DNA of 64,000 nt from a bacterium UBP13_UBA5359 (GTDB taxonomy: Bacteria; UBP13; UBA5359). Of the stretch, positions 32,345-50,499 are shown one piece after another; position 1 is the stretch's first letter; each line of letters opens with the position of its first letter. The translations under genes were made by a program, and so were the position numbers. Where the stretch lies: NCBI GenBank assembly GCA_002410925.1, contig DHPR01000010.1:30295-94294 (forward strand), read 5' to 3'. The notes below the pieces were generated by a model, which saw nothing but the letters and a program-made list of their open reading frames with translations, searched no databases and was not told where the DNA came from.

Positions 32345-34726
32345 TTGCGGGGTCTGACTATGACAGGATTTCGATTCGAGTATATTCTTTTGCTTATCGT
32401 AGCCGCTCTTATATCGGCTGCGGTTATAGCTTTGTACCGCCGGCGTTTGACCAAGGCTCTTATTGTTGTTCCGGGTGCTGAAGAGAATCCATTTGAAGCT
32501 GAGACAGCCTTGCTTCAGCTGCTATCAGGCCCGGCCCTTTCGCCGGACAAGATAGAACTACAACTACAGAAGCGCATCGGAGAGCTATCGCTCCTTTTCA
32601 GCCTGGGGCAATCTCTTGCGCATACAGCAGACTCGGAGCATGCCGTACAGACTATTATTTCTTATACTATGCATATATTGCAGGTTAAAAGATGTATCTG
32701 CCTAAAATATAATGAAGTTCGCGATATAATTGATATCGATGGATATCATGGTTTGAGCCGCTTATTCTTATCCGCTTACCGCTCTTGCCCGCCTGATGAA
32801 ATTGTGAGCATGGCTATTCATGAGGGGCGCACCATCAAGGTGGCTTTAGAAGATGATCTCATGGCCGGCAAGCACAAGCTGTACAAAGCTGAAGGCGTTG
32901 GCGGGCTTCTTGCCGCACCGCTTATTTATGGCGGCAGGCCCGCGGGCGCATTGTTGGTTTTTTCCGATCAAGATGAGAATTTCAAGCCCGAGGCCGGAAG
33001 GCTGCTGACCAGCGTGGCGCATCAGGCGGCTGCTGCGGTTCGAAATACGGCGTTATGCTCGAAGTTGGAGATGCGTAACCAGCAGATTGCTGCTCTGAGT
33101 GATGTTTCCGGGGCTATAAATTCTCTGATGGTGCTTGAAGCCGTGATGCAAAAGATATTATGGTCGATAACATCCATCTTTGAGGCTCGCGCCTGCCTGC
33201 TCTTTCTCTTTGATGAGAGAGAGGAACTGCGACTGGATTCATATTGCGGTTATACAGTGAAAGACCTGCCCGATGAGCCGATCAAAAGAGGACAGGCTGT
33301 AACGACGGTTTTGGCTACAGGCAATCCGCAGTCTGCCGGTTACGAGGAGGCTCCGGAAATATTTGAACTTATCAGTTATCCCGACAATTGCCTGGCAGTA
33401 TTGCTGCCTCTGGCTATCAAAAACAGGCCTGCGGGTATTATGGCTGTAGTCTTGCCCTTTGATCATCCTCTGACGATGGATGACCGAGCTCTTATGATGA
33501 CCTTTGCTACTCAGGTGGCCATTGCGATAGAGAACAATCAACTTTATGACAGCATGGAGCACCGTATAAATGAATTGACAACACTGGTGCGCGTGGTAGC
33601 ATCGATAGCATCTACACTGGATTTAAAGTTTGTTCTGGATACGATAGTGCAATTGGCGGCACATGTTATGAATGGTGCTCTCTGCTCTATTCGTCTCATA
33701 GATGAAGAGAGCGGCACATTGAAGATATTTTCCAGTCTGGGAATGAGTGAGAATCTCTCCGGTGAGTATGGCGACCGAAGTAAGGGTGAGGCGTTGAGTA
33801 TCAGTGTGATTGAGGACGGCAGGCCGGTTATAATACCGGATGTTGCTATTGATTTCCGTTTAACTGCACATGGGAAAGCTGATAATCACGGCTTGCACTC
33901 TTACCTGGGAGTGCCTCTTATATGTCAGGGTGAAACTATAGGTGTTCTGGAGATCTATTGTCGTTACAGGAAACAGTTCAATGAGGCGGAAGTCAGGCTT
34001 TTCTGGGCTTTTGCCGACCAGGCGGCTATCGCCGTGCATAACGCACGGCTCTTTGATCAGGTTCAAAATTACTCTCGTCAATTGAGCGTAATTATGCAGG
34101 AGGTCCACCATCGCGTCAAAAACAATCTTCAGGCAGTAGCGGATTTGCTTTCGCTGGAGATGCTTCAAACTGCCGGCAGGTCCTCCCATGAGATTTTGCA
34201 CAATAGTATCAACAGAATAAAGAGCATTGCAGCCGTTCATGATTTGCTATCGCATGAAGATGTTGAACTGACCGATATGAAGCACATTTCCCAGAGGATT
34301 ATGGATATTGTCGAGGATATGGTCGACTCAGGAAAAAAGGTATGCTTCAGCATTACAGGCAGCAGGATATTCCTGCGTTCAAAGCAGGCTACCTATCTGG
34401 CGCTGGTATTAAACGAGCTATTGGTAAATACTATCAAGCATGCCTTTGAAGGTAAAGAAAAAGGCCGGGTCAGCGTTGAAATGAGCGAAGAAGAGCGCTT
34501 TGTTTCTCTGGTGGTCAGGGATGACGGAAAGGGTATACCTGAAGGCTTTGACATCGATTCTCACAGTCATCTGGGATTGCAGATAGTTCGCAATCTGGTA
34601 GAGCGTGACCTGCACGGCACCCTAGCATATCATAATGATCAGGGTGCCGTATGGAATATAAGATTTGCTAAGGATATGAAGGAGGATAAATTCGCTGTCT
34701 ATGGGAATGAAGGTAGTAATCGCTGA
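32345..34726 (+). CDS. Sensor histidine kinase with N-terminal TM segment, tandem GAF domains and HisKA_2 + HATPase_c
   Basis: H-box HHRVKNNLQAVADLLSLE (HisKA_2 type) and a C-terminal ATPase region. Repeated GAF-like blocks. Confidence 0.75.
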   Translation: MRGLTMTGFRFEYILLLIVAALISAAVIALYRRRLTKALIVVPGAEENPFEAETALLQLLSGPALSPDKIELQLQKRIGELSLLFSLGQSLAHTADSEHAVQTIISYTMHILQVKRCICLKYNEVRDIIDIDGYHGLSRLFLSAYRSCPPDEIVSMAIHEGRTIKVALEDDLMAGKHKLYKAEGVGGLLAAPLIYGGRPAGALLVFSDQDENFKPEAGRLLTSVAHQAAAAVRNTALCSKLEMRNQQIAALSDVSGAINSLMVLEAVMQKILWSITSIFEARACLLFLFDEREELRLDSYCGYTVKDLPDEPIKRGQAVTTVLATGNPQSAGYEEAPEIFELISYPDNCLAVLLPLAIKNRPAGIMAVVLPFDHPLTMDDRALMMTFATQVAIAIENNQLYDSMEHRINELTTLVRVVASIASTLDLKFVLDTIVQLAAHVMNGALCSIRLIDEESGTLKIFSSLGMSENLSGEYGDRSKGEALSISVIEDGRPVIIPDVAIDFRLTAHGKADNHGLHSYLGVPLICQGETIGVLEIYCRYRKQFNEAEVRLFWAFADQAAIAVHNARLFDQVQNYSRQLSVIMQEVHHRVKNNLQAVADLLSLEMLQTAGRSSHEILHNSINRIKSIAAVHDLLSHEDVELTDMKHISQRIMDIVEDMVDSGKKVCFSITGSRIFLRSKQATYLALVLNELLVNTIKHAFEGKEKGRVSVEMSEEERFVSLVVRDDGKGIPEGFDIDSHSHLGLQIVRNLVERDLHGTLAYHNDQGAVWNIRFAKDMKEDKFAVYGNEGSNR

Positions 34727-35276
34727 TGATGAAGCAATAAGATTGATGACGCTTAAAGCTCAATTGACCAACCTGGGGCATCAGGTAGTGGGTGATGCTT
34801 GCACCGGTGAGGAAGCTATCGAGATGATAGTTAAGACCGCACCCGATCTGGCTATTATGGATATTCGCATGCCCGGTTTGGATGGTATTACGGCGGCTCG
34901 TAAAATAATGGAGATTCACCCTATCCCCATAATTATACTTACGGCCTACAGCGAACGAGAGCTGGTCAAATCAGCTACGGATGCGGGAGCCTTTGCTTAT
35001 CTCATAAAGCCTGTATCAGAGCAGGACTTGATGCCGGCTATAGATATGGCTATTTCTCGTTTCAAGGAACTGGATTTTCTCAGGCGCGAAGTCGGTAACC
35101 TCAATCGGGCTCTTGATGTACGGTCTGATGTTGAAAAGGCTAAAGGTATCCTTATGGAGCGTTGCCGTGTGGATGAAGAGAAAGCTTTCAATATGTTGCG
35201 ACAAAGGAGTAGCCAGGAGGGAATGAAGGTAGTCGATATCGCGCGTGCTATTATTATGGCGCACAAACTCTTTTAG
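34707..35276 (+). CDS. ANTAR-domain response regulator (REC + ANTAR RNA-binding antiterminator)
   Basis: REC domain (VVIADDE ... MDIRMPGLDG) and C-terminal ANTAR (VEKAKGILMERCRVDEEKAFNMLRQRSSQEGMKVVDIA). Overlaps the kinase gene. Confidence 0.8.
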   Translation: MKVVIADDEAIRLMTLKAQLTNLGHQVVGDACTGEEAIEMIVKTAPDLAIMDIRMPGLDGITAARKIMEIHPIPIIILTAYSERELVKSATDAGAFAYLIKPVSEQDLMPAIDMAISRFKELDFLRREVGNLNRALDVRSDVEKAKGILMERCRVDEEKAFNMLRQRSSQEGMKVVDIARAIIMAHKLF

Positions 35277-35478: not shown

Positions 35479-36162
35479 ATGAACCGGGTGGAGAATATTA
35501 TAAACATTATGAATATGGAGAGAGCTTTTTCGGAAGAGGAGCTGATCAGACCCTTTGACCGTAAGGATATCAAATCTCGTGAGGGTGCTTATGGAAAAAG
35601 GCTGGATTACATCGAAGGGCATAAGGTTATAGAGCGCTTGAATAGAGCTACCGGTAACAGATGGAGCTCCGAAGTCATATCCGTACAAAAGCATCAGGCT
35701 GAGCAGCGCACTGATAAGCGTACCGGAGAGAGCATTTCTTATCCATCTTACTGGTCGGCTTTGGTCTCCCTGACCATACCCTCTATGGGTAGTCGTATGC
35801 AAGTTGGAACAAAGGCTATAAACGGCAATGAAGAGGATGATATCAAAGGAGCCATAACGGATGGCTTAAAGAAAGCGGCTACACTCTTCGGCGTTGGTCT
35901 GGAGCTGTATGAAACCGCTGATGAAGAGGCTGATATACGCTATTCGGCAGAACCGGAGCGACGAAGAGAGCCCGATAAAATAACCGAAGGACAGCGTAAA
36001 CTTCTTTTCACTATCTGTGAGGAAATAGGTATCCCCGTTGAAAAACAGCGTGAGCATATAGAAGCTAAGCTGGGGGCCATCATCGAGGGTGCTACGCGAG
36101 GCATGGCTACCATAGCTATTCAGGAGCTCAAAGCTGAGAAACGCCTCTTACGTGCCGGCTAA
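35479..36162 (+). CDS. Rad52/Rad22-family single-strand annealing protein (DdrA/Sak-like)
   Basis: DYIEGHKVIERLNRATGNRWSSEV and KGAITDGLKKAATLFGVGLELY match the two conserved Rad52 N-terminal blocks as I recall them. Confidence 0.6.
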   Translation: MNRVENIINIMNMERAFSEEELIRPFDRKDIKSREGAYGKRLDYIEGHKVIERLNRATGNRWSSEVISVQKHQAEQRTDKRTGESISYPSYWSALVSLTIPSMGSRMQVGTKAINGNEEDDIKGAITDGLKKAATLFGVGLELYETADEEADIRYSAEPERRREPDKITEGQRKLLFTICEEIGIPVEKQREHIEAKLGAIIEGATRGMATIAIQELKAEKRLLRAG

Positions 36163-36902: not shown

Positions 36903-37277
36903 ATGAAGTCTTTCTTTCCCCTGAGCATATCCGTTTCCGGAGAAGCCGTATCACGTGTTAAGCTTAAAGGTGAACTGGATGTCTATACCTCTCCAAAGCT
37001 CAGCGCAGTCCTGGGCGACCTTCTGGAACAGGGATGCATCCATATTATTCTGGACTTAGGTCGGCTGCAATTTATAGACAGCGCCGGCCTTGTTACTCTT
37101 GTAAGGCATAATGAAGAAGCCGCCAGAGCAGGCGGCAGCCTGATATTGCTGGACCCCGGCGCCCAGCTGAGAAAAGTGCTCAGGCTAACAGCTTTGGACC
37201 GTCATCTGCGGATAGAATTCAGCGCTGTGCGGAACAAGGAGACGGCTCCCCAAATGAAGGGGGCGGGTTATGCTTGA
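36903..37277 (+). CDS. STAS-domain anti-sigma-factor antagonist, second copy
   Basis: STAS pattern (KLKGELDVYTSPKL ... LQFIDSAGLVTLV). Confidence 0.7.
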   Translation: MKSFFPLSISVSGEAVSRVKLKGELDVYTSPKLSAVLGDLLEQGCIHIILDLGRLQFIDSAGLVTLVRHNEEAARAGGSLILLDPGAQLRKVLRLTALDRHLRIEFSAVRNKETAPQMKGAGYA

Positions 37278-37632
37278 GACGACAATATCTCTGCCTGGAA
37301 TGGATAAAGAGGCCATGCTTCTATGCGATAAAGGCATGAACTCCTTTCTGAAACTGGATATAATTCTTTTTTATCACAACAAGCGGTTATCCGATGCTGA
37401 TATAAATGAGCTTGCTCGCTATACGGGCAGATCACCGGTAGAGGTTGGAGATGCCGTATCGGCTTTGATCGAAGATGGCTTGCTGGAGTTATCTTCCAAT
37501 CGCAATGAAAGATACAGGCTTAGCGGTTTTCCCGATATCCCCAGGCTCTTGAACAAGTTCCTGGAAGCGTATAATCGATTGCCTCAGCGGCTTGCCATCC
37601 TGTCCAAGTTCTTGCGTGAGAATAGGTATTAG
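37270..37632 (+). CDS. Hypothetical protein, possible winged-helix domain
   Basis: 120 aa, no recognisable catalytic motif; overlaps both neighbours, suggesting co-translation in the partner-switching operon. Confidence 0.3.
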   Translation: MLETTISLPGMDKEAMLLCDKGMNSFLKLDIILFYHNKRLSDADINELARYTGRSPVEVGDAVSALIEDGLLELSSNRNERYRLSGFPDIPRLLNKFLEAYNRLPQRLAILSKFLRENRY

Positions 37633-39307
37633 CTGCGGGAATAGGGCGGGTGAAGAATTGAACGAAGATCTTCTCAGCGCATTGCGGAAATACTTTGAGC
37701 TCATGGCTGCTGCAGCACATCCGGGAAATATGAAGCAGGCATTTGCCGATATATTGGATAATACGATATCGGTTTTATCGGCAAACGGCGCGGCACTTTA
37801 TGCGAATACAGGCTCTGAAACTATGGGTGAGATCTTCATATGCAGAGAATTGCCGGATAATCTGTGTGATGAGCTGCAACGGCTCGGAGGTGCTGACAGC
37901 CTCAATGCGGATGCCAGGGAGGAGAACGTGAAAAGGGTCGACGGCGGCTTTTTGTATTCAGTGCTTATACGTCAAAAGCCGGTAATATGTCATCTCTTTG
38001 TATTGTATGAAAAGTGGCTTCCGGGTGAAGCCGAAAAGAAGGTGGCCTGCTCTCTGGCCGAGCTCTTTCTGGCATTGATATGCGAGCAAAGCCATTATCG
38101 GGAATTGGAGCAGCGTATGTATGAGAGCGTTGCTTTAGCCAGTATCGGGCGTACTATCGTTTCCACACTCGATATGGAAAGGGTCCTCAATCAAGTTGTC
38201 AAAATGGTTGCCTATGTAATGAACGCCGCCGTCTGCCTGATTGTTCTTTATGACGAAGAGGAAGGAGAACCGGCAGTGGGAGCTGCTTTCGGTATGGAAC
38301 GATTGGAAGAGAGTTCCGGCATTGTACGCCACGCGATAAATATATACAAGAGGGTGGAAGCGTTGCATAACGGTATTGATTGCAATACTGCAGAGAAATA
38401 CCTGGGCAGATTATGCTATATGGCGGTTCCACTCTTCTCCGGTGAGAGGATCAACGGAGTCGTAATTGTATACAGGGAAGAGGCTTTTTTTGAACATGAA
38501 AGGTCACTGATGCAGGCAACCGCTGCTCAGGCCTCGATTGCCCTGGAAAACGCACGCTTGCACAGCAGCCTGGCATCATTTACAGAACGTGAACTGCGTT
38601 TGGCTGCCGGAATACAGCAAGGCTTGCTTCCCAGGTCTCTGCCCCATACTGCTCAATACGATTTCGGTAGCAAGATACATTTTATGCGTGAAGTCGGCGG
38701 AGATTATTATGACATAATATCCCTCGGCAACGGGCGGCAAGGCATAAGTATCGGTGATGTATCCGGCAAGAGCGTTCCTGCTGCCATTCTGGTGGCTATG
38801 GCAAAGTACGTTTTGCGTGCTTCAGCAGTGACGGAGAATGACCCTGCGAGATCTCTGGAAGCCGTCAATCGCAATATTATCAATGATCTCTCTCCGGAGA
38901 TGTTTATAAGCATGTTCTATGGAATTCTGAATCTTGCCGATAACAAGCTTGTTTATGCCAATGCCGGTCATGAGCCGCCGCTGCTTTTCAGAGAACGTAG
39001 CCATAGCTGCCGTTTTTTGCAGGCGACAGGCGTAGTGCTGGGCGTAATGAGTAATAGTTCTTATCAGCACGCTACTGTGAAGCTTGAACAGGGTGATTGG
39101 CTGGTTCTATATACTGATGGCGTTACTGAGGCCAGGAAGAGCGACGGTGAACTTTTCGGCAGCCGTCGCGTTTGTGAAGCTCTTGAGCGCAATCATCATA
39201 TGCCTGCTCAGATTATGGCGGAGTATCTCTTCAAGGAGGTTTATGATTACTCCACCGGTAAGATAAGCGATGATGTAGCAATTCTGGCGATTAATAGAAT
39301 TGAATAA
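37592..39307 (+). CDS. GAF-domain PP2C-type serine phosphatase (RsbU/SpoIIE family)
   Basis: C-terminal SpoIIE/PP2C block (VGGDYYDII ... GDVSGKSVPAA ... LYTDGVTEA). The N-terminal start is uncertain because the ORF overlaps the upstream gene. Confidence 0.8.
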   Translation: MPSCPSSCVRIGISCGNRAGEELNEDLLSALRKYFELMAAAAHPGNMKQAFADILDNTISVLSANGAALYANTGSETMGEIFICRELPDNLCDELQRLGGADSLNADAREENVKRVDGGFLYSVLIRQKPVICHLFVLYEKWLPGEAEKKVACSLAELFLALICEQSHYRELEQRMYESVALASIGRTIVSTLDMERVLNQVVKMVAYVMNAAVCLIVLYDEEEGEPAVGAAFGMERLEESSGIVRHAINIYKRVEALHNGIDCNTAEKYLGRLCYMAVPLFSGERINGVVIVYREEAFFEHERSLMQATAAQASIALENARLHSSLASFTERELRLAAGIQQGLLPRSLPHTAQYDFGSKIHFMREVGGDYYDIISLGNGRQGISIGDVSGKSVPAAILVAMAKYVLRASAVTENDPARSLEAVNRNIINDLSPEMFISMFYGILNLADNKLVYANAGHEPPLLFRERSHSCRFLQATGVVLGVMSNSSYQHATVKLEQGDWLVLYTDGVTEARKSDGELFGSRRVCEALERNHHMPAQIMAEYLFKEVYDYSTGKISDDVAILAINRIE

Positions 39308-44123: not shown

Positions 44124-44210
44124 TGGTGCCGAAGCGGGGAGTTGAACCCCGACGAGCCATCGCTCACTAGGTCCTGAACCTAGCGCGTCTACCAATTCCG
44201 CCACTTCGGC
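44124..44210 (-). tRNA. tRNA-Leu (anticodon CAG)
   Basis: Reverse complement reads GCCGAAGTGGCGGAATTGGTAGACGCG ... with a perfect 7-bp acceptor stem, anticodon loop TTCAGGA, long variable arm, T-arm GGTTCAACTCC and 3' CCA. Confidence 0.8.
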
Positions 44211-46403: not shown

Positions 46404-46428
46404 TATACACATTGTAACAATGTGTATA
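46404..46428. promoter_or_regulatory. 25-bp perfect palindrome TATACACATTGT-A-ACAATGTGTATA, candidate operator
   Basis: 12-bp perfect arms. Lies 43-67 bp upstream of the clpP-like start and overlaps the predicted -10 and spacer of its promoter. Confidence 0.5.
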
Positions 46429-46439: not shown

Positions 46440-46587
46440 TAAATAGACGCCCATAACACAAGAGCCCGCATGTTTAGCTTCAATTTTGCCAGGGTATATC
46501 TAGGCACGGGTAGCTGGCTCTGCATGGTATCCCTTAGGGATCAGCACAGAAATCCGGGTTGAATATTTATGGCGAAATGGAGAACCA

Positions 46588-47472
46588 TTGATGCCGAGTA
46601 TAGGAATTGCCACGGCATATCCGGAGGCTGATTGGCACAGCAGGCAACTTATAGATGCCGCTTCCAGAAGAGCAAAGACCATGGTGATAGATCCGGGAGA
46701 TCTATCAGTCAATATCGGTGATTACGGCATATCGGTTAGGACGAGCACCGGCAGCCTCGACGGACTGGACGGGCTGATTCTGCTGCGGGCTATAAACGAA
46801 AAGGGCAATCCGGATCATCAGATAGAGATATATAGAGCATTGAGCGGCGCGGGATTGCCGATGATGAATAATATTCAAGCTGCTTTGGCGGCACAGGATA
46901 AGTTCAGGAGCAGCTTCGCCTTCCGGCAGGCAGGCCTGCCCTCTCCCAGAGTTGTTACTGTTCAAAACTTCAGGGAGGGCGTCAGCTACTTACGAGAGAT
47001 GGGGGAGGTAGTGATAAAGCCGATATATGGATCTCTTGGCGAGGGGATAATGCGTCTTTCTGCAGATGATGAGGGAATATTCTTTTTGAAGAGATATCTT
47101 GAGCGAGATGGAGTAGCATATCTGCAGAAATACATCGACAAACCGAATCGGGACATTAGAGTTTTTGTTATAGGAGGAAGAGCTGTAGCTGCCGTATACA
47201 GGGTGGCGAGTGAAGGAAAATGGTTAACGAATATACACTGTGGTGCTCGGGCTCTTCCTTGCAAGCTCTCTTCTGAAACGGAAGCGCTCAGTATAAAGGC
47301 CGCTGCTTCTATAGGTCTGGATTATACAGGGGTTGATATTATTGAAACAGATCGGGGTCCTCAGGTTATTGAAGTAAATGGTTCGCCGCACTGGCAGGGA
47401 GTACATCAGGCTACAGGAAAGGATATAGCCGGCTTGATAGTAGAGCATATGCTGAAGAGAATAGAAGACTGA
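46588..47472 (+). CDS. RimK-family ATP-grasp ligase (alpha-L-glutamate ligase-like)
   Basis: ATP-grasp fold pattern (VVIKPIYGSLGEGI ... YLQKYI ... DIRVFVIGGR ... GVDIIETDRGPQVIEVNGSP). ATG at 46591 is an alternative start. Confidence 0.75.
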   Translation: MMPSIGIATAYPEADWHSRQLIDAASRRAKTMVIDPGDLSVNIGDYGISVRTSTGSLDGLDGLILLRAINEKGNPDHQIEIYRALSGAGLPMMNNIQAALAAQDKFRSSFAFRQAGLPSPRVVTVQNFREGVSYLREMGEVVIKPIYGSLGEGIMRLSADDEGIFFLKRYLERDGVAYLQKYIDKPNRDIRVFVIGGRAVAAVYRVASEGKWLTNIHCGARALPCKLSSETEALSIKAAASIGLDYTGVDIIETDRGPQVIEVNGSPHWQGVHQATGKDIAGLIVEHMLKRIED

Positions 47473-47498
47473 TTTCATTGGGAAAGGGGGTGAAAAGC

Positions 47499-47690
47499 AT
47501 GGCAGAGAATAAGGGCAAGATAACGGTTGGCGAGGCCGGCCATAAGGGCGGGGAGTTGGGCGGTGAAAAGGGCGGAGAGACTACCCGTGAGCGCTATGGT
47601 CATGAATTTTATGAAGAGATCGGCCATAAAGGCGGCCAGAAGGTTAAAAAACTGATTGAAGAGGGTAAAAGAGCATTGGGCGAAAAGTAA
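47499..47690 (+). CDS. GsiB-like KGG-repeat stress protein (hydrophilin), copy 1
   Basis: MAENKGKITVGEAGHKGG ... RERYGHEFYEEIGHKGGQKVKKLIEEGK. Own RBS GGGGGTGA. Confidence 0.8.
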   Translation: MAENKGKITVGEAGHKGGELGGEKGGETTRERYGHEFYEEIGHKGGQKVKKLIEEGKRALGEK

Positions 47691-47777
47691 CTCTATGCAG
47701 AAGCATAATGAGTTTAGCATTATGTGTGAGTCCGTATGTGATTGAACGTAATGCCGGGAAAGAAGGGGGTGAAAAGC

Positions 47778-47939
47778 ATGGCAGAAAACAAGGGCAAGAT
47801 GACGGTCAGCGAGGCCGGCCAAAAGGGTGGAATAACCGTACGGAACAAGTATGGCCATGAATTTTATGAAGAGATCGGCCATAAGGGCGGCCAGAAGGTT
47901 AAAAAACTGATTGAAGAGGGCAAGCGTTCAGGCGGCTGA
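47778..47939 (+). CDS. GsiB-like KGG-repeat stress protein, copy 2
   Basis: MAENKGKMTVSEAGQKGG ... YGHEFYEEIGHKGGQKVKKLIEEGKRSGG; one internal repeat. Confidence 0.8.
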   Translation: MAENKGKMTVSEAGQKGGITVRNKYGHEFYEEIGHKGGQKVKKLIEEGKRSGG

Positions 47940-47996
47940 CTTACAATTCTCGGATAACAGGTTAAATAAGAAAGAATTACGGAGGGGGTGAAAATC

Positions 47997-48278
47997 ATGG
48001 CAGAGAATAAGGGTAAGATGACGGTCAGCGAGGCCGGCCAGAAGGGCGGGCGCACGACCAAGCAGCGCTATGGTCACGGTTTTTACGAAGAGATAGGCAA
48101 GAAGGGCGGGATGACCGTGCGCGATAAATATGGCCATCCTTTCTATGAGGAGATTGGCGGTAAAGGCGGCGAAGCAGTACGCGATAAATATGGTACGCCT
48201 TTCTATGAAGAGATCGGACACAAAGGCGGTCAGAAGGTTAAAAGGTTGATCGAGGAAGGTAAGAAGAGTATGAAATAA
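47997..48278 (+). CDS. GsiB-like KGG-repeat stress protein, copy 3
   Basis: Three YGxxFYEEIGxKGG repeats. Confidence 0.8.
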   Translation: MAENKGKMTVSEAGQKGGRTTKQRYGHGFYEEIGKKGGMTVRDKYGHPFYEEIGGKGGEAVRDKYGTPFYEEIGHKGGQKVKRLIEEGKKSMK

Positions 48279-48370
48279 CCGTAGTTCGCAAACTCATAGC
48301 TCGATCAAAGGCCTGATGGCAGCTTGAATGGTAAATAAGCAATAAATCGAGCATGGAAGGGGGTGAGAGG

Positions 48371-48604
48371 ATGGCAGAGAATAAGGGCAGGATGACGGTC
48401 AGCGAGGCCGGCCAGAAGGGCGGACGCATGACCAGGGAGCGTTACGGTCACGGTTTTTATGAGGAAATAGGGCAAAAGGGCGGCGAGATAGGTGGCGAGA
48501 CCACCAAGGAGCGTTATGGCCATCCCTTCTATGAGGAGATCGGGCACAAAGGCGGTCAGAAGGTTAAAAAGCTGATTGAAGAGGGCAAAAAGAGTGGAGG
48601 CTGA
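48371..48604 (+). CDS. GsiB-like KGG-repeat stress protein, copy 4
   Basis: Two YGHxFYEEIGxKGG repeats and the conserved C-terminus. Confidence 0.8.
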   Translation: MAENKGRMTVSEAGQKGGRMTRERYGHGFYEEIGQKGGEIGGETTKERYGHPFYEEIGHKGGQKVKKLIEEGKKSGG

Positions 48605-48725
48605 TTCATAGCGCATGCCGTGCAACTCATAGCTTGCCAATGTTCTAATCGTTGCTTTGGACGGAGCGTAGAGCAACTGTAAAGGAGCGATGAGGTGCGG
48701 GTACTGAGCAAGGAGGTGATTGCAA

Positions 48726-49085
48726 ATGCCTGAAGAGAAAAAAGGCAAGATGACGGTTGGTGAAGCTGGACAGAAGGGCGGCGAGAGCACTAGTCGCAAA
48801 TACGGCAAGCCCTTTTACGAAGAAATCGGCGAGATGGGCGGGGAAACAACTAAAGAACGCTATGGCCATGAGTTCTATGAAGAGATTGGTCAAAAGGGTG
48901 GCGAAAAGGGTGGCGAAACCACCAGGGAGCGTTACGGCCATGAGTTTTATGAAGAGATAGGTGAAAAAGGCGGCGAGACCACCAGTCAGAAATATGGCAA
49001 ACCCTTCTACGAGGAGATTGGGCACAAAGGCGGTCAGAAGGTTAAAAAGCTGATTGAAGAGGGCAAGAAAGCTGAACATGAATAG
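48726..49085 (+). CDS. GsiB-like KGG-repeat stress protein, copy 5
   Basis: Four repeats. ATG after an AAGGAGGTGA RBS. Confidence 0.8.
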   Translation: MPEEKKGKMTVGEAGQKGGESTSRKYGKPFYEEIGEMGGETTKERYGHEFYEEIGQKGGEKGGETTRERYGHEFYEEIGEKGGETTSQKYGKPFYEEIGHKGGQKVKKLIEEGKKAEHE

Positions 49086-49125
49086 GCTGTGAATTTAAAC
49101 AAAGAATCGATAAGGAGGTGTAAAG

Positions 49126-49344
49126 ATGGCAGAAAAAGGCAAGATGACGGTCAGCGAGGCCGGGCAGAAGGGAGGGCGCACTACCAGGGAGCGTTACGGC
49201 CATGAGTTCTACGAGGAGATAGGTGAAAAGGGTGGAACCACGGTACGTGAGAAGTACGGCACGCCCTTCTACGAGGAGATCGGCCATAAGGGTGGACAAA
49301 AGGTTAAAAAGCTGATTGAAGAGGGCAAGAAGGCCATGGGATAA
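49126..49344 (+). CDS. GsiB-like KGG-repeat stress protein, copy 6
   Basis: Two repeats. RBS AAGGAGGTG. Confidence 0.8.
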   Translation: MAEKGKMTVSEAGQKGGRTTRERYGHEFYEEIGEKGGTTVREKYGTPFYEEIGHKGGQKVKKLIEEGKKAMG

Positions 49345-49440
49345 AGTGAACGTATGGCGAGCGAAGGTTAGCAGATGTAATAAGGCAAGAGGCAGGGTTA
49401 CTATTTGACCCATGCCTCTTCCTCTTTGAGAGGAGAGCAT

Positions 49441-50499
49441 ATGCTGGTAGATATACTAAAAACGAGCCGTTCCATTCTGCTGCAAAAGCTGCCGTCGTTC
49501 GTTTATGGTGCGCCTGAATTGTATGGCCCTCCTGTCTTTATTTATCACCGAATTGATCCTGCAAGCTTCGAGAGGGATTTGAAGTATCTTACCGATAACG
49601 GCTATCTCTTTCTGAATGATGTATGCCTGCAAGCTATTATACAGGGCGATTATCCTTTTACCGGAAGAGAGGTAGCTCTGACCTTTGATGATGGCTATGA
49701 CGATCTATTACAGGTAGCAACACCTCTCTTACGCTCCTACGGCGCGGTTGCTACGGCCTTTATTGTCCCGGGTCTTATAGGATATCCCGGATATCTCAAC
49801 TGGGAAGATCTCTATCGTCTGTCATTATCAGGGGTGATCAGTATAGGTGCACATTCATACCGGCATGCCAAGATATTTGTTTCCGATATATTGGAGCAAT
49901 TTTATGTGCCTGACGATGCCGTAGAAGAGATTATAGTGCGCTGCAATGGATGTGACACTCTTCTATCGGTTGATGGTCGGTATGGCCGACCGTTATATCG
50001 TACCTCCTCCAGGCTGGGCGACCGTCCCAGATATCTGGAAGACGAGCAGCTGACCGCTTTATGCGTAGAGCGCACAGCGGAGATAACCTCCCTGCCGGGT
50101 AGCGAAGCATGGATGCGAGAGCTTTATTCTCTGTGCCGCCTTTACAAGAACAGGTATGGCGGCGGCAGGCTGGAAACATCTCAGGAGCAGGAGAGTGCTG
50201 TGCACGAGGAGCTGGCGTATGCAAAAGAGGTTCTGGAAACAAAGCTGAAGCATCGTATTATTTCACTATGCCTTCCCTGGAATGAGGGTGGAGAGCTGGT
50301 GCGCCGTCTCTGCCGCCCGGCAGGATATGATCTCTGCTTTGCCGGCTATATTGATGGTAATAAATCCAATGCTCCCGGAACAGATCCTTACGCAATATGC
50401 CGCCTAAGCGGAGATTTCGTCAGAACTCTTCCGGGTAGAGAGCGTGTCGGTCTGGCCTCTGTCTTAGCCGGCAAAATAGGAAGAAGGCTGAAGAGCTGA
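49441..50499 (+). CDS. Polysaccharide deacetylase (NodB-homology domain)
   Basis: TFDDGYDD and HSYRH motifs. Start taken at the internal ATG with a GAGAGGAGAG RBS. Confidence 0.7.
   Translation: MLVDILKTSRSILLQKLPSFVYGAPELYGPPVFIYHRIDPASFERDLKYLTDNGYLFLNDVCLQAIIQGDYPFTGREVALTFDDGYDDLLQVATPLLRSYGAVATAFIVPGLIGYPGYLNWEDLYRLSLSGVISIGAHSYRHAKIFVSDILEQFYVPDDAVEEIIVRCNGCDTLLSVDGRYGRPLYRTSSRLGDRPRYLEDEQLTALCVERTAEITSLPGSEAWMRELYSLCRLYKNRYGGGRLETSQEQESAVHEELAYAKEVLETKLKHRIISLCLPWNEGGELVRRLCRPAGYDLCFAGYIDGNKSNAPGTDPYAICRLSGDFVRTLPGRERVGLASVLAGKIGRRLKS

Follow-up and report, generated by a model that had tools for sequence, protein, structure and literature searches.

What could lead a bacterium to keep six genes for small, very hydrophilic proteins side by side on one strand, and does such an array stand alone or belong to a larger unit? 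The question is raised by a locus in the DNA of bacterium UBP13_UBA5359, of which we analysed a stretch of 64,000 nucleotides (hereafter called the window). Our answer, to which we give a probability of about 70%, is that the six hydrophilin genes of this uncultured, Armatimonadota-like bacterium would form a stress-induced operon of seven genes together with a ligase gene in front of them, starting from a promoter of sigma-B type and ending in a hairpin (table 1).

Table 1. Elements of the locus, in window coordinates
Feature	Position	Strand	Description
Sigma-B/sigma-F-type promoter motif	46472-46497	+	GTTTAG-N14-GGGTAT; located 91 nt before the start of the ligase gene
Ligase gene	46591-47472	+	ATP-grasp alpha-L-glutamate ligase of the RimK family; 293 aa counted from ATG; ORF opens with TTG at 46588
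g1	47499-47690	+	KGG/LEA_5 hydrophilin, 63 aa, 1 unit with ELGGEKGG insert
g2	47778-47939	+	KGG hydrophilin, 53 aa, 1 unit
g3	47997-48278	+	KGG/LEA_5 hydrophilin, 93 aa, 3 units
g4	48371-48604	+	KGG hydrophilin, 77 aa, 2 units
47-nt stretch in g4	48542-48588	+	Identical to 49020-49066; site where crossover gave the g4/g5 fusion variant
g5	48726-49085	+	KGG/LEA_5 hydrophilin, 119 aa, 4 units
Partner 47-nt stretch in g5	49020-49066	+	Exact match to 48542-48588
g6	49126-49344	+	KGG hydrophilin, 72 aa, 2 units
Stem-loop	49383-49423	+	Probable terminator; -29.7 kcal/mol, z = -3.6; downstream of g6

That the array of six hydrophilin genes is genuine is confirmed. As an initial annotation of the sequence had described, the open reading frames at 47499-49344 are six tandem genes of the same strand, whose products contain 1-4 tandem units of 20 residues; the number of units does vary along the array, being 1, 1, 3, 2, 4 and 2 from g1 to g6, and Tandem Repeats Finder detects a period of 60 nt within g3. 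The termini shared by all six proteins, MAENKGKMTVSEAGQKGG at the N-terminus and GHKGGQKVKKLIEEGKK at the C-terminus (with the conserved blocks MTVSEAG and KVKKLIEEGK, respectively), were also correctly recognized, as was the separate Shine-Dalgarno sequence of each gene (GGAGG or GGGGGTG, lying 6-9 nt 5' of the ATG). Invariant Glu and Lys are present in every unit, and the positions of Thr vary from unit to unit. The product of g5 is the sole acidic member of the array (pI 5.7) and ends with AEHE. The nucleotide identity between copies, said to be high with the spacers included, is so only in the conserved coding blocks, which are 75-95% identical among the paralogs; the spacers, of 26-121 nt, do not align, reaching 53-78% when the short strings are forced into a global alignment, and are similar only in the approximately 20-35 nt that surround the ribosome-binding site and the start codon. 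A repetitive region of metagenomic source could conceivably be a single gene misassembled into an array, but the chance of this is negligible: the copies differ clearly in sequence and length, no two of them share an exact match longer than 47 nt, orthologous arrays are present in other species, and an ENA assembly (L002), which is possibly the window's own source, contains the six-gene sequence with 100% identity.

Profile searches uphold the initial assignment of the proteins to the KGG family. All six pass the Pfam KGG model (PF10685) with 23.1, 26.0, 36.8, 36.6, 56.1 and 36.3 bits, against a whole-protein gathering score of 20.4 bits; the related LEA_5 model (PF00477, gathering score 40 bits) is passed by g3 (40.4 bits) and g5 (54.0 bits), whereas g6 (37.5 bits), g4 (29.4 bits), g2 (24.1 bits) and g1 (21.8 bits) remain under the cutoff mainly because they are shorter. 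No NCBIfam family matched any of the six array proteins. Hydrophilins, according to the definition of Garay-Arroyo, have more than 6% Gly and a mean hydrophilicity above 1 (GRAVY below -1); with GRAVY values of -1.11 to -1.54 and 19-24% Gly, all six proteins fall inside this definition and have the hydrophilic character originally ascribed to them. The AlphaFold2 model of g6, built with 32 homologs, consists of one long helix (pLDDT 80, pTM 0.35), and the protein is predicted to have no globular fold. The products of the array are small and rich in Gly and charged residues, with a propensity for helix; given their homology to GsiB, YciG and the plant Em proteins, they are most likely protectants that would be abundant under water, osmotic or stationary-phase stress. 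Were it not linked to the ligase, the array would be unremarkable within this known family.

How old is such an array? The initial annotation saw in it a recent dosage amplification, or a set diversified by repeat slippage, of a GsiB-like gene that is normally single. The similarity of the paralogous coding blocks fits this idea, as do the 3' ends of g1/g2 and of g4/g5, which are more alike than expected, and the copy-number variants that the population contains. The comparison with two related metagenome-assembled genomes (MAGs), designated L006 and L007, points elsewhere. Both have the array genes in identical order: L006 has orthologs at all six positions, with equal repeat numbers and the same quirks (EMGG, EIGG, ELGGEKGG), and L007 keeps five of the six, g1 being absent. 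These orthologs are 90-99% identical in amino acids and 79-93% in nucleotides, the differences being many at synonymous and few at non-synonymous sites, and since the flanking proteins are 72-97% identical to those of the window (only 72-90% in L007), L006 and L007 are not one strain. Judged from these sequences, the paralogs are old and each of them is under strong purifying selection. Moreover, single genes are not the usual state in this subfamily, for 52 of the 78 genome loci surveyed hold 2-7 tandem KGG genes, in phyla that include Armatimonadota, Actinomycetota and Myxococcota; arrays of this size are its norm. Together with the dissimilar spacers, the conserved orthologous arrays largely refute a recent amplification, which we consider improbable. 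Across deep lineages, paralogs of the same genome are closer to one another than to the genes of other lineages, a clustering that would also be compatible with recent amplification; in deeper time, each lineage expanded or homogenised its own KGG array.

Recombination does shape the array, as had been proposed, yet its action is local. Synonymous sites show homogenisation within L007, and likewise in the pairs g1/g2 and g4/g5. Copy-number variants are indeed found in other metagenomes: three five-gene versions (L001, L003 and L004) miss the 478 bp between the two 47-nt repeats, so that their fourth gene combines the body of g4 with the tail of g5 (KAEHE) and no separate g5 exists. Three independent assemblies carry this g4/g5 fusion, and a fourth (contig L005) has a deletion of g1. 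Variants with four to six genes still arise by gene conversion and unequal crossover that act locally between the 5' and 3' blocks common to the genes. In the array one has a clean natural case of paralogs that differ in repeat number and are kept for long by purifying selection while local gene conversion and unequal crossover go on.

Which gene accompanies the array? The stop codon of the ligase gene lies 26 nt before the ATG of g1; the initial annotation had overlooked this neighbour. Its product matches Pfam RimK with E = 2e-30 and passes the NCBIfam model for the RimK family (TIGR00768, rimK_fam) with 189.6 bits, the cutoff being 143.4. None of the equivalog models is passed: the best scoring of them, MptN (NF040720), gives 241 bits under a cutoff of 350, LysX (TIGR02144) gives 163 bits under 275.6, and RimK proper (S6--L-glutamate ligase, NF007764) gives 99 bits under 331. 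The closest solved relatives are LysX (E = 1e-33) and RimK, with which the ATP-grasp motifs of the ligase align throughout.

A promoter motif of sigma-B type precedes the ligase gene and not each of the KGG genes, as judged by sequence match; it, too, had escaped the initial annotation. The pattern GTTTA-N13-16-GGGTAT has one match in the 64-kb window, where 0.03 would be expected by chance, and L006 and L007 keep both hexamers unchanged around a variable spacer. Of the 42 genome loci that bear the ligase gene, 10 have the motif before it, the background being 0.009 matches per 300 nt; all ten come from MAGs of the Armatimonadota group or Actinomycetota. A like motif occurs upstream of ligase or KGG genes in other loci of Armatimonadota and Actinomycetota, and no motif of this type was found at the Myxococcota loci. 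At the other end of the array, the stem-loop after g6 is kept in L006, and in L007 the same place is taken by a different GC hairpin followed by a run of T. Scanning the plus strand inside the array for sigma-70 promoters and terminators gave nothing above chance, and the only Rfam match in the whole window is a tRNA, with nothing in the array. Hence, transcription would begin at the sigma-B-type promoter, proceed through the ligase gene and then g1-g6, each of these being translated independently of the others, and stop at the hairpin that closes the unit. The use of promoter and terminator is suggested by pattern and fold, respectively, and we infer a stress function for the seven genes as a unit. 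About 9 kb upstream, the window also encodes a STAS protein and a GAF-PP2C phosphatase, which are parts of a partner-switching cascade.

The association of ligase and KGG genes is not restricted to this genome. In 39 of the 67 testable loci, belonging to several phyla, the ligase lies directly upstream of KGG genes and on the same strand, at distances of -25 to +514 nt, and arrays with multiple genes are associated with its presence (37/2 vs. 12/16; Fisher p = 2.5e-6). No other family among the neighbours of KGG arrays is conserved across phyla; the search for a third conserved gene of the module across phyla returned just the ligase, the KGG genes and their antisense shadow ORFs. In all five sampled members of the ligase clade, KGG genes follow immediately downstream; one of the five is that of the cultured Anaeromyxobacter oryzae (L084; AP025591.1, 6352453-6361397), in which, as in L085 and L088, the reading frames of ligase and KGG gene overlap. 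The first protein outside the clade adjoins CofE and not KGG genes; the clade closest to the KGG-linked one is, therefore, of F420 type. Ligase and KGG genes thus constitute a two-part module conserved across phyla. The ligase is absent beside the remaining 28 of the 67 loci, among them a six-gene array (L026), and no KGG locus of Patescibacteria, Eremiobacterota, Chloroflexota or Methanocella has it; hence, KGG proteins do not need a ligase in cis. We found no description of this pairing: a full-text search of the literature gave no relevant joint mention of KGG, YciG or GsiB with RimK or ATP-grasp, even if the amidoligase survey of 2009 (Iyer et al.) might hold one.

What would the ligase act upon? 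We tentatively suggest the KGG proteins themselves, to which it would add glutamates, for example at a carboxyl group. A wider proposal would make the whole clade a dedicated glutamylating or amino-acid-adding enzyme for group-1 LEA/KGG hydrophilins, providing from Armatimonadota to Myxococcota and Bacillota a stress-induced, ATP-dependent tuning of the charge and hydration of protectants; this appears rather unlikely to us but, if true, the size of the array and its diversity in repeat number would supply a graded set of substrates. RimK adds glutamates to ribosomal protein S6, yet an acceptor signature of the S6 or LysW type is not evident in the KGG proteins, because their C-terminal tails are variable (120 homologs) and ends with Glu or Asp are not enriched at ligase-linked loci (29/48 vs. 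15/35 of the others), even if some arrays include proteins that end with EEEE or EGD. Among the best 150 representatives, nearly all shorter than 380 aa, there are no fusions of ligase and KGG protein.

These two observations are in line with another possibility that we hold just as loosely, namely that ligase and KGG genes are only co-regulated, the enzyme producing a small molecule or a free polymer (poly-alpha-glutamate, a glutamyl osmolyte) or modifying another protein such as S6, and the KGG proteins remaining unmodified. Its best equivalog match, MptN, is a cofactor glutamyl ligase, the CofE-linked outside clade lies nearest to it, and KGG loci devoid of ligase are frequent; moreover, RimK makes free poly-Glu in vitro, as also stated by PMC10375531. 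Mere co-regulation would account less readily for the tight adjacency, constant orientation and overlapping or near-abutting frames seen in distant phyla, or for a ligase clade tied so specifically to KGG genes, and the module has no further conserved gene for biosynthesis or transport. Furthermore, RimK and LysX, two characterised branches of the RimK family, both act on small proteins.

The order of genes also recalls the biosynthetic clusters of graspetides, of microviridin or plesiocin type, in which an ATP-grasp gene is followed by tandem genes for short peptides with variable core repeats (PMC8939145). Given this superficial likeness and the invariant Glu and Lys of each unit, the ligase could be imagined as a macrocyclase and the KGG genes as multi-core precursors, their N-terminus serving as leader and the 20-mers as cores. 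The scores of the enzyme led us to reject this reading, which is very improbable: on the graspetide maturase model (TIGR04187) the ligase obtains 31 bits against a cutoff of 350, while passing the RimK family, and the graspetide enzyme PsnB is a remote relative (E = 9e-10) in comparison with LysX. Nor are the Thr positions conserved, and cross-link residues that are conserved specifically at ligase-linked KGG loci were not found, the Glu/Lys motif being conserved also at loci that have no ligase. The same motif is conserved in GsiB and in plant Em proteins. Unlike graspetide clusters, finally, the module of the window has an enzyme from a different ATP-grasp family and no conserved protease or exporter.

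Returning to the operon of ligase and hydrophilin genes, its interest lies in the fact that group-1 LEA/KGG proteins span from bacteria to plant seeds and their mechanism is poorly understood. A partnership with a ligase, if conserved at the level of the operon, would provide a concrete and testable handle on these protectants, and the presence of the module in cultured Anaeromyxobacter makes it directly accessible to experiment. Should the KGG proteins be enzymatically modified, the modification would be new among the post-translational ones of bacteria, and the RimK family would gain a third branch directed at proteins; alternatively, the protectants may work jointly with the product of the ligase.

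Among known systems, RimK with S6 and LysX with LysW resemble the window in the enzyme, which shares with them the family model TIGR00768 and the ATP-grasp motifs, and lysX adjoins lysW as our ligase adjoins genes for small proteins; unlike in those systems, the ligase remains under the cutoffs of RimK, LysX and MptN, and its neighbours have no conserved C-terminal Glu tail. YciG and YmdF of E. coli, which are stress-induced and RpoS-dependent, are small proteins of the same Pfam KGG family, but the units of YciG lack the YGxxFYEEIG core, and it neither forms arrays nor is known to have an ATP-grasp neighbour. The plant group-1 LEA or Em proteins (LEA_5) share the 20-mer motif with the array, of which g3 and g5 pass their model and the other four fall below it. 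Barley B19.1, B19.3 and B19.4, with one, three and four 20-mers, are likewise paralogs that differ mainly in the number of this motif; the plant genes, however, belong to eukaryotes and are expressed in seeds, outside any operon and without a partner ligase. Bacillus subtilis GsiB, finally, has the same 20-residue unit in tandem, ending with FY(E/Q)EIGxKGG, the same extreme hydrophilicity and Gly content, and a promoter of sigma-B type, GTTTAA-N12-14-GGGTAT, matched here in sequence by the motif upstream of the transcription unit. The gsiB gene, which is under sigma-B control, is single and monocistronic, and its product has five near-identical units without the C-terminal helix QKVKxLIEEGK; it is not known to have an adjacent ligase. 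The array of the window differs in comprising six genes with 1-4 units each, framed by the MTVSEAG and KVKKLIEEGK blocks and placed behind a ligase.

All six KGG genes claimed between 47478 and 49344 are present on one strand when ORFs are counted from the ATG after each Shine-Dalgarno sequence, and they are preceded by a gene for a RimK-family ATP-grasp ligase that the initial annotation had overlooked (table). The proposed family holds, as all six proteins pass the gathering score of the Pfam KGG model, g3 and g5 passing also that of LEA_5 (plant Em or group-1 LEA) with the shorter proteins just under the cutoff, while an NCBIfam search of the six returned no model for KGG proteins. Their common N-terminus, M(A/P)E..KGKMTV(S/G)EAG(Q/H)KGG, is followed by one to four copies of a unit that has roughly 20 residues and closes with YGxxFYEEIGxKGG (the group-1 LEA 20-mer, also present in Bacillus subtilis GsiB), and then by QKVK(K/R)LIEEGK and a short variable tail; Tandem Repeats Finder detects a 60-nt period inside g3. 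Hydrophilin character is common to all six (Gly 19-24%, GRAVY -1.11 to -1.54), five being basic (pI 8.0-9.6) and g5 acidic (5.7). The AlphaFold2 model of g6, built with 32 homologs, is a single long helix (pLDDT 80, pTM 0.35) and indicates helix propensity without a globular fold, as expected of LEA-type proteins. The minus strand of the array (47475-49440) holds long stop-free ORFs of 135, 167, 144, and 132 aa, and such antisense ORFs also face the KGG genes at 20 further loci; rather than genes, these seem to be shadow ORFs due to repetitive GGN/GAR/AAR codons.

Features of the KGG array and its surroundings (window positions)
Feature	Position	Strand	Remarks
STAS-domain protein	36903-37277		about 9 kb upstream
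ORF between STAS and phosphatase genes			120 aa; no Pfam match
GAF + SpoIIE/PP2C phosphatase	37592-39307		about 9 kb upstream
Sigma-B/sigma-F-type motif, GTTTAG-N14-GGGTAT	46472-46497		clpP-ligase intergenic region
RimK-family ATP-grasp ligase	46588/46591-47472	+	stop 26 nt 5' of g1
g1	47499-47690	+	63 aa, 1 unit
g2	47778-47939	+	53 aa, 1 unit
g3	47997-48278	+	93 aa, 3 units
g4	48371-48604	+	77 aa, 2 units
g5	48726-49085	+	119 aa, 4 units
g6	49126-49344	+	72 aa, 2 units
Strong hairpin after g6	49383-49423		z = -3.6

When one genome per GTDB species was scanned, genes for close relatives turned up at 78 loci. Armatimonadota MAGs have five to six tandem KGG genes (the unit numbers 1-2-2-1-3-2 and 2-1-2-2-3 recur), Actinomycetota and 'Aquicultor' three to seven, and Myxococcota one to four, as do Patescibacteria. 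Tandem arrays are the rule in this subfamily and not the exception, and given these counts the premise that KGG genes usually occur singly fails for it. The host itself is an Armatimonadota-like uncultured bacterium, to judge from its GuaA, the named matches of which (64-70% identity) carry Armatimonadota labels almost throughout (Armatimonadota/Armatimonadetes, Abditibacteriales, Capsulimonadaceae), two being called just 'bacterium'.

How old is the array? It is not an assembly artefact of a single gene, because the copies are too different from each other: No two of them have an exact match of more than 47 nt, even with 40 nt of upstream sequence included. The six-gene sequence is also identical in ENA assembly L002, and orthologous arrays occur in other MAGs. 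Two of these, L006 and L007, have the locus with flanking proteins 80-97% and 72-90% identical to those of the window, respectively. L006 has all six genes with the same order, repeat numbers, and quirks (ELGGEKGG in g1, EIGG in g4, EMGG in g5, tail AEHE), and L007 carries g2-g6 without g1. The window genes share 95-99% of amino acids and 90-93% of nucleotides with their L006 orthologs, and 90-98% and 79-86% with those of L007; with many synonymous and few non-synonymous changes, the paralogs are therefore old, each under strong purifying selection, and the recent duplication initially supposed must be abandoned. Homogenization is nevertheless visible in a 75-nt 3' block common to the copies, where all five L007 genes share the synonymous codons GTC AAG ... 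ATC GAA GAA and all window and L006 genes have instead GTT AAA ... ATT GAA GAG. In this block, g1 and g2 are 95-97% identical to each other in both the window and L006, and the window's g4 and g5 are 93% identical, g5 being only 88% identical to its L006 ortholog. Paralogs within a lineage are, on deeper comparison, closer to one another than to genes of other lineages, so that arrays expanded or were homogenized independently in each major lineage.

Copy number varies too. Contigs of three other assemblies (L001, L003, and L004), matching the window at 98-99.96%, are without 478 bp between 48592 and 48968; the junction lies within a 47-nt stretch identical in g4 (48542-48588) and g5 (49020-49066), and the fused gene has the g4 body and the g5 tail KAEHE. 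L001 comes from another strain and not from a collapse of the same reads, because its downstream flank differs (99.3%); the assembler k-mers in the contig ids (119, 127) exceed the 47-nt repeat. In L005, a contig of 702 nt, g1 is deleted and the ligase 3' end is joined straight to g2 through a 35-nt identical ribosome-binding-site and start region. From this fusion and this deletion, unequal homologous recombination appears to produce haplotypes of four to six genes. The gene conversion that the initial annotation offered as one option is borne out by the 3' block, and recombination by these variants; the high spacer identity it reported is not, conservation of paralog spacers being confined to the surroundings of the ribosome-binding site and start.

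Regarding regulation, the sigma-B/sigma-F-type pattern has its sole match in the window (0.03 expected by chance) before the ligase, and L006 and L007 keep its two hexamers unchanged but not the spacer between them. Among 42 genome loci with a ligase, 10 have a slightly relaxed form of the pattern before it (background 0.009 per 300 nt), all of them from Armatimonadota-group or Actinomycetota MAGs, and the strict one also stands before several individual KGG genes in Actinomycetota; the motif was not found at Myxococcota loci. A scan found no terminator-like site on the plus strand within the array, and in L007 the place of the window's hairpin after g6 is taken by another, different GC hairpin plus a T run. 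The stretch 36903-39307 looks like an RsbV/RsbU-type partner-switching module, fitting sigma-B-like regulation here. Taken together, motif, uninterrupted array, hairpin, and STAS/PP2C genes point to an operon of seven genes that would be controlled, like gsiB, by a general-stress sigma factor. The best-supported reading of the sequence is a stress-induced operon that would yield a graded series of protectants of the group-1 LEA/KGG kind plus the RimK-family ligase.

Other elements lie nearby. The divergent clpP/ligase intergenic region holds a perfect 25-nt palindrome, TATACACATTGTAACAATGTGTATA (46404-46428), overlapping a sigma-70-like clpP promoter (TTGACG-17-TACAAT, 46439-46411, minus strand) and with its core conserved in L006 and L007; matching neither the usual CIRCE nor the usual CtsR box, it is a candidate operator for a repressor. 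The polysaccharide deacetylase ORF 3' of the array (49405-50499, with a TTG start at 49405 by ORF finder), conserved in the closest relatives only, most likely starts near 49441, at an ATG preceded by the hairpin and by GAGAGGAG as ribosome-binding site. An ANTAR response regulator (34701-35276) is encoded just upstream of a Rad52/Rad22-family single-strand annealing protein (35479-36162, E = 4.5e-20), of a kind uncommon in bacterial chromosomes outside prophages. The single Rfam match in the whole window is a tRNA gene (44127-44210, minus strand).

The ligase matches Pfam RimK (E = 2e-30) and passes TIGR00768 rimK_fam (189.6; cutoff 143.4), remaining below the cutoffs for the equivalogs MptN (241 vs. 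350) and LysX (163 vs. 276), GAK-system ATP-grasp (153 vs. 300), S6-glutamate ligase or RimK proper (99 vs. 331), and graspetide maturase (31 vs. 350). Its closest solved structures are LysX (1e-33) and RimK (5e-29 to 4e-25), with ATP-grasp motifs aligned throughout, and PsnB, the graspetide ligase, is a distant match (9e-10). A graspetide-type cluster of ligase and KGG genes is consequently very improbable, the ligase belonging to the wrong ATP-grasp family.

By tblastn of the window neighbours against all loci, the ligase is the sole match outside the closest relatives. Of the 67 loci with sufficient upstream sequence, 39 have it immediately 5' of the KGG genes and in the same orientation (gaps -25 to +514 nt), across Armatimonadota, Actinomycetota, Myxococcota, and MAGs labelled Pseudomonadota; a Bacillota MAG (L061) has part of it where the contig ends. 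Arrays of several genes go together with the ligase (37 multi-gene and 2 single-gene loci with it, 12 and 16 without; Fisher p = 2.5e-6), and when all neighbouring ORFs are clustered, ligase and KGG are the only families common to several phyla. Homologs of the ligase scoring >=219 bits (40-56% identity) make up a clade, below which scores fall to <=179 bits. All five sampled members, including cultured Anaeromyxobacter oryzae, have a gene of ~130 aa and then a shorter one directly 3'; in A. oryzae these encode four-unit and one-unit KGG proteins, and at another locus, L085, the first encodes a four-unit KGG protein. The ligase overlaps the first KGG gene in A. oryzae, L085, and L088, and the nearest protein outside the clade adjoins CofE instead. 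Only ~20 clusters exceed ~190 bits among 7390 RimK-like matches in a 50%-identity representative library, and none of these is a ligase-KGG fusion. Anaeromyxobacter-type loci (L084, L085, L089, and L090, Myxococcota) have a GlnD-like PII uridylyltransferase gene 5' of the module, replaced in L088 by separate HD- and ACT-domain genes, and most have Sua5/YciO, XerC-like, and M50 peptidase genes 3' of it; this is lineage-specific synteny.

Could the KGG proteins be substrates of the ligase? In favour are an adjacency and orientation kept strictly from phylum to phylum, frames that overlap, linkage specific to the clade, the lack of any other conserved partner, and the precedents of RimK with S6 and LysX with LysW; against it stand the many KGG loci without ligase, the variable C-terminal tails, in which Glu/Asp endings are not enriched at ligase-linked loci, and the best-scoring model, MptN, which is a cofactor ligase. 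We give the substrate role roughly one chance in three, and rate it equally likely that ligase and KGG proteins are co-regulated but independent. In several Armatimonadota arrays, some proteins end in AEEE, AEED, or AEGD, and the four-unit KGG proteins after the ligase in L061 (a Fredinandcohnia MAG) and L074 (a MAG labelled Pseudomonadota) have encoded poly-Glu tails (...TSEEEE, ...SSEEEE), recalling the S6 C-terminus that RimK extends.

No description of a conserved ligase-KGG module was found in freely accessible full-text literature. The proteins belong to the known KGG/group-1 LEA family, and plant paralogs differing in 20-mer number are known (barley B19), as g1-g6 differ; the six-gene array alone is therefore ordinary, if neat. 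A ligase modifying LEA-type proteins, which is less likely than not, would if true be more interesting.
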